From assembly GCF_055900595.2 (NCBI RefSeq), contig NZ_CM148325.1: a DNA stretch of 64,000 nucleotides; one strand, given 5' to 3'. A program made the translations under genes and the position numbers. Positions 3,228 to 42,061 of this stretch are shown piece by piece. The notes under the pieces are model-generated. The model had not been told where the DNA came from, made no database searches, and saw only the letters and a list, made by a program, of their open reading frames with translations. Position 1 is the first letter of the stretch, and each line of letters starts with the position of its first letter.

Positions 3228-3869
3228 TCAGCGACCAATCACCACAACCTGACCACCATCACCTTCATCTGCTGTGCTGATCTCCTGAGATACCACACGT
3301 GATCCCACGCGCATTTCACCGTACAGAACGGGCAGAACATTGCCCTGGGCAACCATATTATCCAGTGAAGAAGAATAGGTGTTCTGTTTGCCGTTATCCG
3401 TTGTCTGTGTGCGGGGGGTTTTGGGTTTAGGGGCCAGCATCTGTGCAACACCGCCAAGCGTCATACTGGCACCGAGAGAAAACAGCAGATTACTCGCCAT
3501 AATTCCTACCCCCGGCATCCATATAGCAACCGCCATAACAGCCGCCCCCAGCACAGCCTGAAACACACCACCACGTTTGGCTCCCGCCAGACGCGGCACG
3601 ATGTGGATCACGGCACCATTTGCCAGCGGTTCATTAAGACGGGCTGATAATTCGTTTTCGCCTGTATCACGCCCGGCAATACGCACCTGATACCAGCCGT
3701 CGCTCAGTTTCTGACGAAACGCAGGGAGCTGCGTGGCCAGCGCCCGGATGGCTTCGGCTCCCGTTTTCACACGAAGGTCGATGCGGCGGCCAAATCGTTG
3801 CAAATCCCCGTAAAGGCAGATGCGTGCCATGCCCGGTGACGCCAGAGGGAGTGTGTGCGTCGCTGCCAT
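3228..3869 (-). CDS. I: tail assembly protein I
   Basis: 213-aa ORF; position between J and K; C-terminal hydrophobic segment; overlaps K by ~100 bp as in lambda. Confidence 0.8.
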   Translation of the reverse strand: MAATHTLPLASPGMARICLYGDLQRFGRRIDLRVKTGAEAIRALATQLPAFRQKLSDGWYQVRIAGRDTGENELSARLNEPLANGAVIHIVPRLAGAKRGGVFQAVLGAAVMAVAIWMPGVGIMASNLLFSLGASMTLGGVAQMLAPKPKTPRTQTTDNGKQNTYSSSLDNMVAQGNVLPVLYGEMRVGSRVVSQEISTADEGDGGQVVVIGR

Positions 3870-22306: not shown

Positions 22307-22633
22307 TCAGGGACGTGATGGCGTAAAGATAAATTGTCTCTTCACTCCCTGACGGGGACTATTCTTTTCAAATCTCCATTTCGCCATGGCCTTCACCACT
22401 TCATCACGAAACAAATTATGAGGCTCTGAGCGGAGAAAAACGATCCGTGTCACAGTCCCGTCAGCACCAATATCGAACTTAACCTCAACCAGCCCCTTGA
22501 TATAATTTGCTGCAGCATATTCCGGATATCGTGGATACACCGTCACTAATTGCCGGGGCTCATCAGCTTTTTGCTGCGAGCATCCCACTGCCAGGGCAGA
22601 TAACAGAAAAAGTAGTGAAAGGCGTCTTTTCAT
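22307..22633 (-). CDS. lipoprotein with TonB C-terminal-like domain
   Basis: Start MKRRLSLLFLLSALAVGCSQ (lipobox AVGC) with AGGA RBS; body YPEYAAANYIKGLVEVKFDIGADGTVTRIVFLRSEPHNLFRDEVVKAMAKWRFE aligns with host TonB C-terminus in this same window ([54 protein letters not shown]). Confidence 0.7.
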   Translation of the reverse strand: MKRRLSLLFLLSALAVGCSQQKADEPRQLVTVYPRYPEYAAANYIKGLVEVKFDIGADGTVTRIVFLRSEPHNLFRDEVVKAMAKWRFEKNSPRQGVKRQFIFTPSRP

Positions 22634-23265
22634 TTTTATTCCTACGGGTCTTATTCTGACAATATATCCTGTGTTCCAGACTGCCATATCACCACATCCT
22701 GTGCCATTATCTGACTCACATTACATACATCGCATCAGGATACAGTAGTAGCACTTTCTGTAATACAGCTTCCGGTTTCTTCCACCATCGCACCGGACTG
22801 GCGAGCATGAGGGACAAACCCGCGAACCATAAACGCGGTAAAAACCCGGTGTGCATCGTTTTTGATTATTCCCGCACACTCGCGCAGAAGGAGTTCCCCG
22901 TCGGGCTACGGTCATGGTTAATGCGGGAATACAGCGACGATACAGCGCATGATGTGTCAGGCTTGAATACCTTTATCCGTTAAAAGGGATATCAGTTAAG
23001 TTATCCCGTGTAGGGTATAAGCCATTATCAAAGCCACTCTGTAGGGAGTGGCTTTTGTAATGGCAATAAAAAAGCCCCGCGAATGCGAGGCTAAATCCAG
23101 GTATTTTTAATGACTGGCTCTTATCTCAACGCAGCCCCTTACCGCGCGCCAGATGCTCAATATCAAGCATCAGCAATGAGATGTTTAATCTGGATTCACT
23201 CCAGAAGTGATCACCACCCTGTCTACAGAGCCAGATGTGAAGGATGATGAGTAAAATTATCGCTA

Positions 23266-23748
23266 TCATCGAAGGCATTGCGTCCTGATGTATTCCTGAA
23301 GCGTTCTCAGTGCTGTCTGGTCGCGGATAATTCCGTCCCGGATACCGAGAACGTTTCGTCCAGCAACTGGAGAGAGTTCGACGGTGGCATCATTGCCCAT
23401 GCCGGAGGCGCTGGAGGTTTCGGCTGAGGATGGCACAGGGCATTTTCCTTTGACGAGCACCCTGCCACCATTATCAAGCTTGCGCCGAAGAGCATCATTT
23501 TCAGCTTTCGCATCAGCTAACTCCTTCGTGTATTTTGCATCGAGCGCAGCAACATCACGCTGACGCTGCTGCATGTCAGCGATGGTGGCGGTCGCCTGCT
23601 TCAGCTCACTGACTTTTTTATCACGTTGTTCTTTGTAGGCTATGGCGTTATCACGGTAATGATTGACCGCCAACGACAGGCAGACGATGATGCAGATAAC
23701 CAGAGCATAAATAATCGCGGCGACTCTGCTCACTGATCTATCCCCCAA
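23266..23748 (-). CDS. Rz: spanin inner-membrane subunit Rz
   Basis: N-terminal TM segment [28 protein letters not shown] and [24 protein letters not shown] match lambda Rz; start uncertain. Confidence 0.9.
23307..23513 (-). CDS. Rz1: spanin outer-membrane lipoprotein Rz1 (embedded in Rz, +1 frame)
   Basis: [21 protein letters not shown] lipobox and Pro-rich [13 protein letters not shown], like lambda Rz1. Confidence 0.85.
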
Positions 23749-24263
23749 CAGGCTAATGCGCTTTCCTGGTCACGACGAATAACCTGTCCATAGCAGTTAT
23801 TTGAACGGATACGGCAGTCACGCCCACCATCCTTTATCCACCAGCGAATCGCCTCGCAGGCGCCTTTTCGATCACCGGCATTAAGCCGCTTATAAAACGT
23901 CGACGGGAAACACTTACCGGGGCCAATGTTATAGGGACAGAATGACGCAATACCCGCTTTCTGTGGTTCGGTCAGAGGTACTTTAATATTGCGCTCCACC
24001 CATGCCAGTGCCTTATCACGTTCAATAGCGTTAACCTGGTCGCATTTTTCCTTCGACAGCTTCATTCCGGGAAAAACGGGTTTTCCATCCACCATCGTGG
24101 CACCCCGACAGATGGTCCAGATGCCGGACCCATCGCGGTATGCCGTTGTGTGGTTACCCTCTTTTTCGTCCAGAAACTGATCAAGTATCTGAGGAGCAGA
24201 TGCGCCAGCACCAATCAGCGCCAGAACGGCAGCCGACAGGCCGTATCTGATTTTTGCGTTCAT
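23730..24263 (-). CDS. R: SAR endolysin (T4-lysozyme-like, GH24)
   Basis: N-terminal weakly hydrophobic Gly/Ala-rich segment [16 protein letters not shown]; catalytic E..D..T spacing ([24 protein letters not shown]). Confidence 0.85.
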
Positions 24264-24920: not shown

Positions 24921-25193
24921 TCATATTTCTTTTGGTGCCTTTTTCGCAATCTCAGCCACAGCATGTGCCGTAGCCGGAACATTACCGGCATTAGTTCGTT
25001 CCAGAATTTCGAGCAATATGCGGGTTCGTTTTTCCTGCTCCCGTTTGTTAAGGCGATAAGTAAGAACGCCAAGAATGATACTGAACGCCACGCCGATAAT
25101 AAATCCCCAATCCTGCAGTGACAGGCTGGCAAAGAACGCAACAAGTCCTGCGCTGCCGTATGCAGCGTTACTGTATCGTTCGTCCATTCTCAT
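24921..25193 (-). CDS. S: class II holin (phage-21 S-like pinholin) with dual-start motif
   Basis: Starts MRMDERY (Met1-Arg-Met3); two TM segments (GLVAFFASL / GFIIGVAFSIILGVLTY); charged C-terminus; paired with a SAR endolysin. Confidence 0.8.
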   Translation of the reverse strand: MRMDERYSNAAYGSAGLVAFFASLSLQDWGFIIGVAFSIILGVLTYRLNKREQEKRTRILLEILERTNAGNVPATAHAVAEIAKKAPKEI

Positions 25194-25529: not shown

Positions 25530-25608
25530 TTAGTGCCGACTACCGGAATTGAAGTGGTGGCCTGATGGTTACAACTAAACTGTTCTGCCGACTGAGGTAA
25601 GTCGGCAC
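25530..25608 (-). other. tRNA-like element, degenerate (possible pseudo-tRNA)
   Basis: Starts directly after the CCA of the adjacent tRNA; ends are inverted complements (GTGCCGAC...GTCGGCAC) but no canonical T-arm or D-arm could be folded by eye. Confidence 0.3.
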
Positions 25609-25685
25609 TGGACCGCCACCGGGGACTCGAACCTCGCACACTCAACTTAAAGGGTTGACGCTCTTTCCTGATGAGCTAGTGGCGG
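25609..25685 (-). tRNA. tRNA, identity uncertain (anticodon loop CCUUUAA)
   Basis: Acceptor CCGCCAC/GTGGCGG, D-arm GCTC..GAGC, anticodon stem TCAAC/GTTGA, T-loop TTCGAGT, 3' CCA encoded; position 33 is C rather than U. Confidence 0.65.
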
Positions 25686-25687
25686 TT

Positions 25688-25762
25688 GGTGGCCCTTGCT
25701 GGATTTGAACCAGCGACCTGGCGATTATGAGTCGCTCGCTCTCACCACTGAGCTAAAGGGCC
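25688..25762 (-). tRNA. ileZ: tRNA-Ile2 (CAU anticodon; ileX/ileZ-like)
   Basis: Reverse complement GGCCCTTTAGCTCAGTGGTGAGAGCGAGCGACTCATAATCGCCAGGTCGCTGGTTCAAATCCAGCAAGGGCCACCA is a near-match to E. coli ileX; T-arm GCTGG-TTCAAAT-CCAGC. Confidence 0.85.
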
Positions 25763-25880
25763 GGGCGCAGGATAATAACGTTACGAAATCAATGTTGCAA
25801 GCATTCAAAAATCACCTGGTTAAAAATCACCCTTAGCTCCTCCACCAGCGCATTCACCATGTCTATCCGAGATAAGTGGC

Positions 25881-25908
25881 ACAAAAAAACCCGCTTGTGG
25901 GCGGGTTT
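25881..25908 (-). terminator. tR'-like intrinsic terminator downstream of late promoter
   Basis: Minus strand AACCCGCCCACAAGCGGGTT hairpin followed by a T-run. Confidence 0.75.
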
Positions 25909-25952
25909 TGTTTGCTTTTGCCATCACGTACAAAATCGGCAAAATATCAGAT

Positions 25953-25989
25953 TTGCATGAAATATATGCCTTTCAATCTACTTTTGCAA
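25953..25989 (-). promoter_or_regulatory. late promoter pR'-like (sigma70)
   Basis: Minus strand TTGCAA (-35; 25984-25989), 17-bp spacer, TATATT (-10; 25961-25966), just downstream of Q. Confidence 0.6.
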
Positions 25990-26668
25990 CACTTTGCTTT
26001 GAAAATGCCGCCTTTTGTTTTGAACGTGTTCTCATTACAAACAATAAAGCCTCACTATCCAGTCGTTGAAAAATGTGTTTCATTGCAACCCAGTGACGAG
26101 TAAATGTTTTGGACCAGTTTTTAGTTGTCACTCCCGCCAGTAATGCCAGCTCCTGGTATTCATAACCTTCCCCACCAAAAAGTTCTGCTTTTACTGCCTG
26201 CGCCGCCAGCCAGATTAATTTTTTCAGGCGTTCCTGCGTTTTCCCTGCAATTTTTCTGGTACCTGATTGAGTATTAAATTCATTCCACGCCCACTGTGTT
26301 ATCGCGATCTGATATTCCCAACAAATACTCCCGCTGTAACTCCACAACAACCAGGCTTTATGATGTTCTTCAAGAGACAGAACAGCCCGCCGCCACGATG
26401 ATGTCGAAAACTCAACCGGGCTGACCAGGGCAATTGATGAGCCTTTCGCCAGTGATTGTTTTCCCGGGATTGGTGGATTATCCCGCGTAATCATTTTTCC
26501 GGTCACTTCATCTCGGTACCGGATTTTTTTACGCCTGTAACGCCCTGTATCGAACATGGCATTCTCCTGCCAGGCTTCAAGCTGACCTTTTGTTGCCCCA
26601 CTCAAATCAGCGGTGGCGATAATGAGCTCCTCACGCACAAACTGTAAATACTGGTTATTCATGCGCAC
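25973..26668 (-). CDS. Q: late antiterminator Q-like protein
   Basis: 231-aa ORF immediately upstream of pR'/tR' and downstream of rusA; canonical Q position. Confidence 0.7.
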   Translation of the reverse strand: MRMNNQYLQFVREELIIATADLSGATKGQLEAWQENAMFDTGRYRRKKIRYRDEVTGKMITRDNPPIPGKQSLAKGSSIALVSPVEFSTSSWRRAVLSLEEHHKAWLLWSYSGSICWEYQIAITQWAWNEFNTQSGTRKIAGKTQERLKKLIWLAAQAVKAELFGGEGYEYQELALLAGVTTKNWSKTFTRHWVAMKHIFQRLDSEALLFVMRTRSKQKAAFSKQSVAKVD

Positions 26669-28897: not shown

Positions 28898-29053
28898 TTA
28901 CTCCTCAGGTTCGTAAGCTGTGAAGACAGCGACCTCCGTCTGGCCGGTTCGGATTCGTACCTCGCAGAGGTCTTTCCTCGTTACCAGTGCCGTCACAATG
29001 ACGGTAATACAGATGACGATCAGGGCGACTAACATCGCCTTTTGCTGCTTCAT
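28898..29053 (-). CDS. hok: Hok/Gef-family type I toxin (in-frame upstream extension to 29110 is mok-like)
   Basis: MKQQKAMLVALIVICITVIVTALVTRKDLCEVRIRTGQTEVAVFTAYEPEE resembles Hok (single TM, conserved C...EVA.F.AYE); inverted repeat GGCGAGGGATTTCTCCCTCGCC in the 3' region. Confidence 0.85.
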   Translation of the reverse strand: MKQQKAMLVALIVICITVIVTALVTRKDLCEVRIRTGQTEVAVFTAYEPEE

Positions 29054-29264
29054 AGCCTGCTTCTCCTTGCCTTTCGGCACGTAAGAGGCTAACCTAGATT
29101 TGCCGTTCATAGATTGAGCCTCAGATTAATGTTAAGCGTCTTGCCGGACGCGTAATGTTAACTGGGGCTTTTCTCTATCTGCCTTTTGGGGTTCATGCCT
29201 GAGACAGATAGCCTCAAGCACCCGCTGCAATTCTACTTAACTCTCCTTTTCCCGCAAACCGTTT

Positions 29265-35420: not shown

Positions 35421-36208
35421 CAGACCCCTCAGAGGATACCACCTCGCCTGACGTGGTTAAAAGCAGGCACACAACACGAAAGCGCACGGCGAGGTAGCTG
35501 GTTCATATATAGCCTGTCGTTAAATTTTCGTCGACCGTGCGCTTCCGGTTGTGGCACTCCGCGAAATGGCGCGGCGGTAAGCATGGCGGGGTTCCCTTCC
35601 CCTTGAGGACACCGGGTTGTCAGGTTGACCATGCGCCTGAGTGACAACCCCGCTGCAACGCCCTCTGTTATCAATTTTCTGGTGACGTTTGGCGGTATCA
35701 GTTTTACTCCGTGACTGCTCTGCCGCCCTTTTTAAAGTGAATTTTGTGATGTGGTGAATGCGGCTCAGCGCACGCGGAACAGTTAAAACCAAAAACAGAG
35801 TTATGGGTGGATTCTCTGTATCCGGCGTTAATTGTTAACTGGTTAACGTCACCTGGAGGCACCTGGCACCGCATCAACAAAGTTCACTTCGGTGATGAAA
35901 GGTAAGAGAAAATGTTGAATGTAGCTATTGAAAACCAGTACGGGTGGAATTATAGTGCACCTGCACCTCATAAAACGGGTGCCGGGCGTGGAAACCCGAA
36001 AGTTACTCGAGCGCATAACCGCGCCGAAGCGGTTTTTTTATGCGTAATGCACAGCCACATTCAGATAATGGTGGGGCGTGCAGGGCAGCTGCAAGGCTGG
36101 CCGGGTTCTCGAGTGACCGGTATTTCCACCCCTGTACGTCTCGCCACCCTTATGGTCGTGGAAAGCCTCGGTGGTGAGTTAATTAACTTAACACTTGAGG
36201 ATGCCATC

Positions 36209-39664: not shown

Positions 39665-39913
39665 ATGGCAAGACTTATTCTGCTCACTGAGTGGGCAAAA
39701 GAGGAATTCAGTGAACCGGTCCCTAGTCCGGGTACGTTAAGTAAATACGCTAAAGCCGGAATGATATTTCCTCTCCCCAAAAAAGTAGGAAGGCACTGGC
39801 GAGTGGATCCACGCGCTCGCTTTGTCGGAATGGTAAACAAGCCGGAGGTGATCGCCACAGATCACCCTGCTTTGAAGAGGATACTGGAAGATGGCGCGCC
39901 CGCGAAAATATAA
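39665..39913 (+). CDS. xis: excisionase (Xis)
   Basis: 82-aa ORF overlapping the int start; motif resembles lambda Xis. Confidence 0.75.
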   Translation: MARLILLTEWAKEEFSEPVPSPGTLSKYAKAGMIFPLPKKVGRHWRVDPRARFVGMVNKPEVIATDHPALKRILEDGAPAKI

Positions 39914-41021
39914 AACCGATGTTCCGGGTTTATCTCCGTATTTTGACAAAAGAAATAACAAAGTTTACTGGCGTTACAGGCATCCCATCACAGGTAAAAA
40001 TCATGGACTCGGCAGTATTGACCAGAAACTGGCGGAAACCATTGCAGCAGAAGCGAACAGCCGTCTTGCCAGACAACAAATGGAGCAAATGCTCAGTCTG
40101 CAGGAGAAAATTATTAGTGATACCGGCGGCGCATCAACCGTTTCCATTTTTCTGAATAATTACAGAAAAATTCAACAGGAAAGATATGAGAACGGAGAGA
40201 TCAAACTCAGCACGCTGAAGCAAAAAGCGGCTCCTCTCAGGGTGTTTGATGAACGTTTTGGAGCCAGGCCGCTAGATGCCATAACCGTAAAAGATGTGGT
40301 ATCGGTGCTGGAAGAATACAAGGCAAAGGGACATAACAGAATGGGACAAATTTTCAGGAAGGTATTGATCGATGTTTTCCGGGAGGCTCAACAAACGGGT
40401 GATGTTCCGCCAGGCTTTAACCCGGCTGAATCGGCAAAAAAACCGCAAGTGCGGATATCAAGACAGCGACTGACTTTTGATGAGTGGATGATGATTTATA
40501 ACGCAGCGGAAAAGGATGGTTACTTTTTACAGCGCGGCATGCTGCTGGCACTGATGACGGGCCAGCGTCTTTCGGATATTTGCAAAATGCAGTTTTCGGA
40601 TATCCGGGATGGTTACCTTCATGTCGAACAGCAAAAAACAGGAGCCCGGATAGCCATTCCTCTGGCTCTGCGTTGCGACAAATTAAATCTTACCCTGGGT
40701 GACGTGGTGTCATCCTGTCGTGATTACATCCTTAGTCCGTGGTTATTGCACCATCATCACGCTAAGGGGATGGGTAAGCGCGGCGGGATGGTTAAACCAG
40801 CAACATTAACAGTCGCATTTAAAAAAGCCCGGGATTCTGTGGATTACAACTGGCGTGCTAATGGCACGCCACCCTCTTTCCATGAGCAAAGATCTTTATC
40901 AGAACGATTGTTCAGAGAACAGGGAATTGATACCAAAATTTTGCTGGGCCATTCGAATCAAAAAATGACCGATATTTACAACGACGCACGCGGTAAAGAG
41001 TGGAAAAAACTGGTTATTTGA
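39891..41021 (+). CDS. int: tyrosine integrase (lambda Int family)
   Basis: 376-aa ORF; N-terminal arm-binding-like region; C-terminal catalytic region (...LLGHSNQKMTDIY) ; att junction immediately downstream. Confidence 0.9.
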   Translation: MARPRKYKTDVPGLSPYFDKRNNKVYWRYRHPITGKNHGLGSIDQKLAETIAAEANSRLARQQMEQMLSLQEKIISDTGGASTVSIFLNNYRKIQQERYENGEIKLSTLKQKAAPLRVFDERFGARPLDAITVKDVVSVLEEYKAKGHNRMGQIFRKVLIDVFREAQQTGDVPPGFNPAESAKKPQVRISRQRLTFDEWMMIYNAAEKDGYFLQRGMLLALMTGQRLSDICKMQFSDIRDGYLHVEQQKTGARIAIPLALRCDKLNLTLGDVVSSCRDYILSPWLLHHHHAKGMGKRGGMVKPATLTVAFKKARDSVDYNWRANGTPPSFHEQRSLSERLFREQGIDTKILLGHSNQKMTDIYNDARGKEWKKLVI

Positions 41022-41066: not shown

Positions 41067-41705
41067 TTAGAAGCGGTATCCGGCAGAGAACATAAACACC
41101 CACGGATCCAGTCGTACCGCGTCTTTCACGGGGGTTCCATTAAATTTATAGCTGGCGGTGGTGTCGATATCCATGTACCAGACTGACATGTTCACCAACC
41201 AGTCACGGTTAATCAGATAATCAACCCCCACCTGCCCGGCAGCTCCCCAGGAGTCTTTCAGACTGAGATCGGAAAGTCCCGCCTCTTTGCCATGATCGTT
41301 GAATCCATTATCAAAGAAGGTGGTGTAGTTAATACCTGCCCCAACGTAAGGACGGAATTTGCTGCTGGCATCACCAAAATACCACTGCGCCATCAGTGTT
41401 GGCGGCAGATGATGAACGGTTGCAATATCGCCGGTCGCCCGGGTGCCGATTTTATGGCGGAACGGCGTCGCTGCCAGCAATTCCACACCAATGTTATCGG
41501 TCGCCATATAAGTAAACGTCAGGCCCAGTTGCGTGTTATTGGTCACGCTGAATCCACCCAGACTTCCTAACGTACCACCAGCACCTTCTGTTGGACGTAC
41601 GGTTGCAGAACCTGCACGCATAAAAAATTCGCCTGCTTCATGCGCAAAGGCACTGCCAGAGAGAAGAGTTGTTACTGCCAAAGCCGCCACTGTTAACTTT
41701 TTCAT
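41067..41705 (-). CDS. ompW: outer membrane protein W
   Basis: 212-aa product MKKLTVAALAVTTLLSGSAFA...SAGYRF (C-terminal Phe); ORF-track start extended upstream. Confidence 0.95.
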   Translation of the reverse strand: MKKLTVAALAVTTLLSGSAFAHEAGEFFMRAGSATVRPTEGAGGTLGSLGGFSVTNNTQLGLTFTYMATDNIGVELLAATPFRHKIGTRATGDIATVHHLPPTLMAQWYFGDASSKFRPYVGAGINYTTFFDNGFNDHGKEAGLSDLSLKDSWGAAGQVGVDYLINRDWLVNMSVWYMDIDTTASYKFNGTPVKDAVRLDPWVFMFSAGYRF

Positions 41706-42061
41706 ATCCGCTCCGTCGTTATGGTTATAAAAACGTGACGAATATACCCACATTGGAGTAACAAATGATCCTACATAGATCACATTACATATGATAATTC
41801 ACCCTTTATTGATCTGGATTAATTTAGAAGTTGCACTGGAAATCCTGGTTAATGTGATTTAAATCAATTTTTAAATATTTTCGCTACGCAAATATTAACT
41901 CGCTCGCCACTTGCAGCGGTTTGCCCACGCCTGAAGGCCAGCAATTACCTCCGCTTTACAAAGATATGCTTTTCCATACAAGACCTGATGCTGCCACCCG
42001 AGGCTTAACCAGGGTACAATTGCCCGCTAATTAACACCTGCATAAAACTCAAGGAGAGTGC

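Follow-up and report, generated by a model that had tools for sequence, protein, structure and literature searches.

Arrays of tRNA genes in the slot between the late antiterminator gene Q, with the promoter pR' and the terminator tR', and the lysis genes are textbook features of phages that carry Shiga toxin (Stx) genes, and are usually explained by the supply of tRNAs for rare codons. Late-region tRNA arrays are equally well known from lambdoid phages. In Stx phages, 933W among them, the characteristic gene order, upstream of stx, is ileZ-argN-argO. The present study concerns an array in the same slot of a lambda-like prophage, in a 64,000-nucleotide stretch of contig NZ_CM148325.1 (assembly GCF_055900595.2), hereafter the window, and in particular its second gene, which combines the anticodon UUU with a C at position 33 of the anticodon loop. 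An earlier examination of the DNA letters by themselves (the sequence-only reading) had marked three tRNA-like elements here; their positions were confirmed, and to them can be added the strand, which is minus for all three, with gaps of 1-2 nt between the elements:

25687..25762, minus strand: t1, tRNA-Ile2-type gene with anticodon CAU, equivalent to ileZ (Rfam, ARAGORN, the Prokaryotic Genome Annotation Pipeline (PGAP), identity to ileZ)
25609..25685, minus strand: t2, argN-scaffold tRNA gene with anticodon UUU, C33, U73 and encoded CCA (ARAGORN, Rfam, cloverleaf pairs)
25531..25606, minus strand: t3, pseudogene of a thrU-type tRNA-Thr(UGU) (alignment to thrU, broken pairs, low Rfam score)

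Our comparison with the Stx-phage array draws on the database annotation of the Stx2a phage F349 (AP012530) and on PMC7946995. The first gene of the array is 100% identical to ileZ, and the second is 84% identical to argN, with the same acceptor and T arms, but with UUU and C33 where argN has UCG and U33. In the third place argO is replaced by the thrU pseudogene, and the stx genes present in the Stx phages are missing here. The inference in the sequence-only reading that this is the tRNA slot of Stx phages devoid of stx is thus borne out by the ileZ identity, the argN homologue, the Q gene before the array and the lysis genes after it. Closer still are non-Stx arrays of the form Ile-'Lys'(UUU,C33)-Thr(UGU)-Gly(UCC), such as that of E. 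coli CFS3313, which share with the window identical t1 and t2 genes and the same promoter region but have Thr and Gly undamaged, whereas here Thr is degraded and Gly is absent without a detectable remnant.

Two further sets of described tRNAs provide a functional context. Phage T5's tRNA-Lys(UUU) and the phage tRNA-Lys genes that rescue infection from PrrC170 (PMC11464382, PMC12409363, PMC11555353) combine the host UUU anticodon with a body that differs from the host at positions 16, 39 and 41, all of importance to AriB, as does t2. These come from virulent phages and are experimentally proven, whereas t2 belongs to a temperate phage, is built on an Arg scaffold, carries C33, is known from sequence, and has about half of its copies looking degraded. 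Departures from U33 are known in the eukaryotic initiator tRNA-Met (C33) and in the Candida tRNA-Ser(CAG) (G33) (PMC5041475, PMC11122139), both cloverleaf-shaped like t2, and the latter, again like t2, also bearing an anticodon from the codon box of another amino acid; these comparators are eukaryotic and experimentally characterised, in contrast to the prophage-borne t2. In the literature searches made, no account came up of any elongator-type tRNA with C33 from bacteria or phages, and no paper on the C33/UUU prophage tRNA, which RefSeq already labels tRNA-Lys. Most of the array is ordinary (an ileZ gene, a pseudogene and missing stx genes), and its under-appreciated part is the anticodon-remodelled C33 paralogue of argN.

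Across the whole 64 kb ARAGORN predicts two tRNAs alone, at 25687-25762 (CAU) and 25609-25685 (UUU), and both ARAGORN and PGAP call t2 a tRNA-Lys, the PGAP calls being understood to come from tRNAscan-SE. In place of the standard Arg and Ile assignments for all three elements, which the sequence-only reading had named as the outcome that would tell against it, PGAP gives Ile for the first, Lys for the second and nothing for the third. On the Rfam tRNA model RF00005, with its gathering score of 29 bits, t2 scores 44.4 bits (E 3.5e-06), which is comparable to the 43.0 bits of the accepted argN. The covariance alignment gives the loop C32 C33 U34 U35 U36 A37 A38, closed by the stem UCAAC/GUUGA, and agrees with the ARAGORN call Lys(ttt), confirming the CCUUUAA loop, the C at position 33 and the apparent UUU anticodon of the earlier hand fold. 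Other registers of the anticodon stem that might restore U33 were considered, and none keeps the five Watson-Crick pairs UCAAC/GUUGA; a role as a UAA suppressor through a shifted anticodon was likewise considered and dropped, as nothing spoke for it. Minimum free energy (MFE) folding alone is uninformative on tRNA shape, given that even t1 and thrU lack a cloverleaf MFE structure, and cloverleaf pairs were therefore scored explicitly: in t2, 20 of 21 form, at -22.3 kcal/mol, as against -21.5 kcal/mol for host thrU.

The ancestry of t2 is apparent from sequence identities, which amount to 51.9% with host lysT, 84.4% with argN of the Stx2a phage (loop CUUCGAA, anticodon UCG) and 89.6% with an Arg(UCU) allele (loop CUUCUAA) that occurs in E. 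coli strain 135 and in an IMG/VR contig. The argN scaffold thus exists in three anticodon states: UCG, UCU and UUU. Eight positions distinguish t2 from the Arg(UCU) allele, and the changes include: 1) in the loop, U33 to C and C35 to U; 2) a compensatory replacement of the stem pair G30-C40 by A30-U40; and 3) G51 to A, giving an A-C mismatch that is also found in argN. By these identities t2 is not descended from host tRNA-Lys, and is a member of the Stx-phage argN scaffold. Its identity elements are mixed. The U34 U35 U36 triplet is the UUU anticodon that is reportedly, from work of Tamura et al. in 1992, the main identity element of the lysyl-tRNA synthetase LysRS, and U35 stands in place of the C35 that ArgRS requires in an Arg anticodon and that an argN-type tRNA-Arg would have. 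The gene encodes its own CCA, preceded by the discriminator U73 and not the A73 of host lysT, and C33 departs from the U33 of canonical elongators. Taken jointly, the identity and ancestry of t2, of ileZ (t1) and of the thrU pseudogene (t3; both below) can be stated with high confidence.

In portraying t2 as a one-off oddity the sequence-only reading was mistaken, as it represents a widespread allele that PGAP already annotates as tRNA-Lys. Members of its family, 852 copies in all, occur in 797 of 5,426 complete E. coli genomes, 278 of these at >=99% identity, and its 3' end is present in at least 120 IMG/VR contigs. Among the IMG/VR matches listed, to which the counts in the rest of this paragraph also refer, Ile(CAU)-t2-Thr(UGU)-Gly(UCC) is the usual array (104 of 112). 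C33, U34-36, A37 and A38 are invariant in 102 arrays, in which position 32 may be C, U or A. Five of the seven stem variants of t2 preserve pairing, and a new broken pair appears in 2 of the 102 arrays. The nucleotide diversity in these arrays is 0.003 for t1, 0.009 for Thr, 0.013 for Gly and 0.018 for t2, the last value being low in part through ascertainment, because the search pattern fixed the last 25 nt (the 3' end) of t2. Diversity reaches 0.26 in the 60 nt upstream and 0.29 in the 44 nt downstream, more than 10-fold above that of t2, though this contrast overstates selection because the flanks are mosaic modules. No family member with U33 and UUU, or with C33 and a base other than U at position 35, was found in IMG/VR; the UUU state thus always comes with C33, a base reported in PMC5041475 and PMC11122139 only for eukaryotic initiators. 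Five U33-UUU matches in IMG/VR that were considered as intermediates between Arg(UCU) and UUU/C33 proved to be unrelated tRNAs.

An additional copy was noted in the Stx-producing-type E. coli prophage of strain 2013C-3277, where a UUU/C33 anticodon arm occupies the argN slot before argO (401-476 of the fetched stretch). In this copy the 3' acceptor strand resembles that of argN and the D-stem is shorter by a 1-nt deletion; PGAP leaves it unannotated. It indicates that the UUU/C33 allele moves between array types, evidently by recombination inside the tRNA gene. The allele has now been seen in three array contexts, namely Thr-Gly, pseudoThr and argO.

With regard to function, the explanation that we tentatively favour, with a confidence a little below an even call for the whole, runs as follows. 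The array would be transcribed from its own conserved promoter (below), supplemented by Q-dependent read-through from pR'. From this transcript t1 would supply AUA decoding for AUA-rich phage genes, and t3 would do nothing. The second gene would still be processed and, because UUU is the main LysRS identity element, charged with lysine, so as to read AAA and AAG. As AAA is not limiting, the most likely benefit of t2 would be as a resistant lysine tRNA, poorly handled by those host anticodon nucleases that are directed at tRNA-Lys. Whether t2 is a working Lys-decoding tRNA we regard as evenly poised, and nuclease evasion as its selective value as possible but rather unlikely.

The attraction of this proposal lies in the target, since tRNA-Lys(UUU) is the classic substrate of PrrC and a prime target of the PARIS system. 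PrrC cleaves tRNA-Lys(UUU) 3' of U33, and when overexpressed also cleaves tRNA-Arg(UCU) (PMC2610378); in t2 the base immediately 5' of this cleavage site is C33. The PARIS nuclease AriB is impaired by U39A, A41C or U16C in its substrate (PMC12409363), and the non-host body of t2 lacks the published AriB determinants U16, U39, C40 and A41. Thus, in sequence comparison only, t2 keeps the anticodon of the target and has the nuclease determinants changed, with C16, G39, U40 and U41 against U16, U39, C40 and A41 in the host, and with C33 at the PrrC junction. Phage tRNA-Lys genes are known to rescue infection from PrrC170 (PMC11555353), and the T5 tRNA-Lys from PARIS (PMC12409363). This makes t2 a candidate for tRNA-based counter-defence in temperate phages, such counter-defence having so far been studied only in virulent phages such as T5. 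In its boldest form the proposal would be that lambdoid prophages, in roughly one of every seven E. coli genomes, converted a phage tRNA-Arg by an anticodon change into a lysine-decoding tRNA and fixed a C at the otherwise universal U33, right at the PrrC cleavage bond, so as to gain a tRNA-Lys that survives PrrC, RloC and PARIS. This is unlikely, and slightly less probable than nuclease evasion as such; if true, it would constitute a natural tRNA identity switch serving as counter-defence in temperate phages.

Nearly as likely is that t2 is a decaying and non-functional relic, that is, an argN-type tRNA-Arg that took two hits in its loop (C35 to U and U33 to C) and persists as a passenger among useful genes, its conservation reflecting recent spread of the array by recombination and not selection. 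Several lines of evidence weigh against a working lysine tRNA, and most of them favour such a relic: 1) U33 is near-universal in elongator tRNAs (PMC5041475, PMC11122139), a rule that C33 breaks, so that C33 could simply be a defect, and U73 of t2 is not Lys-like, the base in lysT being A73. 2) Of 40 family copies sampled evenly from the 797 records, 22 (about 55%) are without a PGAP tRNA annotation, and the unannotated copies are at most 97.4% identical to the query. 3) Three copies are degraded, with respectively a D-stem deletion; U8C plus two changes that form G-U pairs; and seven changes including G18A. They give no Rfam tRNA match at E<=1, and stand beside annotated Ile, Thr, Gly or Arg neighbours, which implies that constraint on t2 is weaker than on those neighbours. 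4) The adjoining Thr gene in the window is plainly dead, suggesting that decay is common in such arrays. 5) The low diversity of t2 may also stem from recent spread, and the family, confined to E. coli prophages, is absent from 100,044 species-representative genomes in two scans (with the family pattern and with the 3' end), which leaves no argument from deep conservation. 6) AAA needs no supplement. 7) The differences at the AriB determinants come free with the Arg scaffold and need not be adaptations; an unrelated anticodon nuclease, the yeast gamma-toxin, cleaves a U33C substrate without any effect of the change (PMC2275089); and the Thr copy of related arrays, being identical to host thrU, carries the AriB site and should itself be cleavable.

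Set against decay are the following features. In the modal t2 sequence 20 of 21 pairs persist, with a score as good as that of argN, and the pair 30-40 has changed in a compensatory manner relative to the UCU allele. The loop is invariant across the 102 listed arrays except at the variable position 32, the stem variants mostly preserve pairs, and the diversity remains more than 10-fold under that of the flanks. The UUU/C33 allele has, moreover, been moved into three array contexts. Should t2 nonetheless be dead, the RefSeq label 'tRNA-Lys' would be wrong for hundreds of genes in E. coli prophages that are in fact pseudogenes.

The customary explanation, that all members of the cluster including t2 supplement codons rare in the host, is improbable for the array as a whole, although it accounts well for some of its members. 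Codons were counted per 1000 in the open reading frames (ORFs) called in the window itself, prophage against flanking host:

AUA: prophage 7.5-9.5, host 4.2
ACA: prophage 10-15, host 6.9
GGA: prophage about 14, host 7.3
AGA: prophage 5-10, host 2.5
AGG: prophage 3.6-5, host 1.1
AAA: prophage late genes 30.1, host 38.5

AUA, ACA, GGA, AGA and AGG are thus about twofold commoner in the prophage than in the flanking host ORFs, and match Ile(CAU) here and Thr(UGU), Gly(UCC) and Arg(UCU) in related arrays, so that the rare-codon rationale fits t1 and these genes of the relatives. It fails for t2, since AAA, far from being rare, is the main codon for Lys and shows no enrichment in the late genes, and K-12 carries at least five tRNA-Lys(UUU) genes in a single locus. 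In the window, furthermore, another tRNA stands in place of the AGA reader and the one for ACA is dead, leaving AUA supply as the sole surviving function of this type. Hence the suggestion in the sequence-only reading that the unusual phage tRNAs adjust the decoding of rare codons stands for t1, with AUA enriched, and fails for t2; the array illustrates that the rare-codon explanation does not cover every member.

It is very improbable that t2 acts outside translation as a decoy or competitive inhibitor of tRNA-Lys-directed nucleases or modification enzymes, charged or not: competition of over-expressed viral tRNAs against AriB has been raised as a possibility (PMC12409363) and U34-U35-U36-A37-A38 is kept exactly in the loop, but a decoy for AriB should have retained the UAAUCA site, and t2 is without it.

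The first gene of the array, t1, reaches 72.5 bits on RF00005 (E 6e-14 for a search of the whole window) with a cloverleaf fold, is identical to ileZ of F349 at 76 of 76 positions, and matches K-12 ileX at 68 of 76, in keeping with the clean ileX-like CAU tRNA discerned in the sequence-only reading. ARAGORN calls it Met(cat) from its CAU anticodon, and in matching genome records PGAP calls an identical sequence tRNA-Ile. As the CAU is carried on an ileX-like and not a Met-like body, the gene is of the tRNA-Ile2 type. In tRNA-Ile2 the C34 is converted to lysidine by TilS, whereupon the CAU anticodon reads AUA, and the tRNA is charged by IleRS.

The third element is a dead copy of a host-type thrU. 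It measures 76 nt and not the 79 nt previously given, the extra complementary bases being U(-1) and G(-2) with A73 and C74. It is identical to thrU of K-12 and to the intact prophage copy at 61 of 76 positions (80%; 15 substitutions), shares with thrU the whole acceptor stem and the UGU anticodon, and occupies the slot of the intact Thr gene of related arrays, with which it aligns in register. Its likeness to a tRNA is not due to chance, because beyond the 80% identity to thrU its sole matches among 50,697 phage records are tRNA-Thr genes (E 3e-11). Neither ARAGORN nor PGAP calls it, and its Rfam match, at 25534-25606, reaches 19.8 bits (E 0.23), below the gathering score, so that it surfaces only under relaxed thresholds. 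The non-canonical fold noted earlier is real: 7 of 21 cloverleaf pairs fail, among them the D-stem pairs 10-25 and 11-24 and the anticodon-stem pairs 28-42, 30-40 and 31-39; the G53-C61 pair, otherwise universal, is gone, and CUA stands in place of CCA. The energy of the cloverleaf is -5.6 kcal/mol, as opposed to -19.2 kcal/mol for an MFE structure of different fold. The notion of decaying remnants is therefore apt for this element, albeit with derivation from a thrU copy and not from argO. No remnant of glyT follows it (local alignment score 13, shuffle mean 13.6).

In the MFE structure of t3 the 5' acceptor strand forms a new hairpin with the former D-loop. Two substitutions, A17C and U20C, make the D-loop read AGUCGGCA, which duplicates the 3' acceptor strand exactly and is perfectly complementary to the 5' one; this might have arisen by template switching and not by independent point mutations. 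The element is found in 19 of the 5,426 genomes (23 places), always at >=99% identity to the query and never annotated. The chance that it has been co-opted as a structured RNA, such as a processing signal, stabiliser or terminator of the array transcript, is slight: the two substitutions do create a perfect 7-8 bp hairpin that dominates the predicted fold, and the element is the same in all 19 carrier genomes, but that sameness, many of the carriers being chicken-derived, is most simply due to recent common descent, the hairpin is not followed by a U-run, no Rfam family matches, none of the 50,697 phage records carries a copy, and the remaining 13 substitutions resemble unconstrained decay.

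The origin of this particular array can be approached through its relatives. Strain 135 and the window share 97.8% identity over the stretch that runs from t1 through the lysis genes; between the two, t1 has no differences in 76 positions, t3 with the 90 nt downstream is identical, and t2 has eight differences, with one more in the spacer. Against CFS3313, t1, t2 and the spacer base are identical, and divergence begins at position 10 of the Thr gene. The confinement of the divergent patch to t2 suggests that the UUU/C33 allele was swapped in between prophage arrays. On the simplest interpretation, this common allele entered an Ile-Arg(UCU)-pseudoThr array as a patch, by recombination or conversion, and the right-hand junction of the patch falls among the nine bases that open the Thr gene. 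The exact combination, as a 501-bp stretch, occurs in three complete genomes only, all from chicken or chicken meat.

Separately, the Thr(UGU) and Gly(UCC) genes of CFS3313 (3295-3448 of the fetched stretch), and those of most IMG/VR arrays, are 100% identical to host thrU and glyT, pointing to capture from the host or to ongoing conversion by it; in the phage arrays they are 3 nt apart, with no tyrU between them. Some phage glyT copies differ from the host gene, by C to T at position 6 in 11 arrays and by G to A at position 66 in 12; these changes would be compensatory if the two positions pair, a pairing left unconfirmed by a glyT cloverleaf string that looked mis-registered.

A predicted promoter precedes the array:

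25772..25800, minus strand: sigma-70-type promoter TTGCAA-17-TATTAT, with the G+C-rich CCTGCGCCC between it and the tRNA 5' end (consensus scan and conservation)

The site stops 9 nt before t1. Among the matches listed, 106 related arrays comprise 28 distinct upstream sequences, and in these TATTAT keeps its place in 102, as does TTGC[AG][AG] in 102, with the remaining upstream region mostly variable. Retained while the rest diverges, the hexamers form the phylogenetic footprint of an array-specific promoter, and suggest that the array is a transcription unit of its own, which may be expressed in lysogens. Stable-RNA promoters likewise carry a G+C-rich stretch after the site. This promoter and the thrU pseudogene are minor but clean gains for annotation.

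The prophage adjoins ompW (41067-41753), which its integrase gene (39891-41021) abuts, and its late genes are on the minus strand. Along that strand the order is Q, promoter, hairpin and the three tRNA-sized elements, followed by the lysis genes:

25973..26662, minus strand: late antiterminator Q, immediately upstream of the array (Pfam Phage_antiter_Q, E 7.6e-90; an identical stretch of E. coli LH50-c is annotated Q by PGAP)
25961..25989, minus strand: pR'-like promoter TTGCAA-17-TATATT, overlapping the end of Q (consensus scan; position matching lambdoid pR', the function being putative)
about 25879..25912, minus strand: tR'-like intrinsic terminator, reading AAAACCCGCCCACAAGCGGGUUUUUUUGUG, a G+C-rich hairpin followed by seven U
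24921..25193, minus strand: holin-like protein of 90 aa, encoded by the first of the late ORFs beyond the array (Pfam holin matches are weak, E 1.3e-4 and 9e-4, and miss the curated cut-offs)
23730-24263, minus strand: lysozyme (Pfam Phage_lysozyme, E 1.4e-24)
23266-23748, minus strand: Rz-type lysis protein (Pfam Phage_lysis, E 4.5e-31)

The placement of the array downstream of pR'/tR' in the sequence-only reading is in accord with the promoter-like site at 25989-25961 and the hairpin with its U-run at about 25912-25879. Between the tRNA genes and the lysis genes there is no stxA or stxB, the ORFs there matching holin-like, lysozyme and Rz proteins in Pfam, and the PGAP listing of a related genome contains no toxin genes; the holin-like ORF at 24921..25193 occupies the position held by stx in Stx phages. 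Zero-offset collinearity between the window and LH50-c is limited to about 20.5-27.5 kb, outside of which the prophage is mosaic relative to LH50-c, with offsets from +2308 to -18.

Further RNA matches were observed in the window. The short transcript expected between pR' and tR' (25884-25957, minus strand) has sub-threshold Rfam matches to isrK (22.7 bits) and isrJ (24.5 bits), a pattern consistent with a putative 6S-like late leader RNA. The Rfam family 'Plastid-ycf2 5'UTR' matched the antisense strand of every tRNA checked, including 25689-25762 (plus strand), at 23-36 bits, below gathering, and was set aside as a recurrent artefact. Above the gathering scores are sok at 29048-29223 (minus strand), next to the hokD gene in a related genome, and DicF (35677-35728), isrK (35963-36039) and the C4 antisense RNA (36064-36151) on the plus strand; these small regulatory RNAs are grouped in the early/immunity region of the prophage. 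Just downstream of the lysis genes, and still inside the prophage, lies a small ORF (22307-22687, minus strand) that is annotated as a 'TonB family protein' in a related genome.

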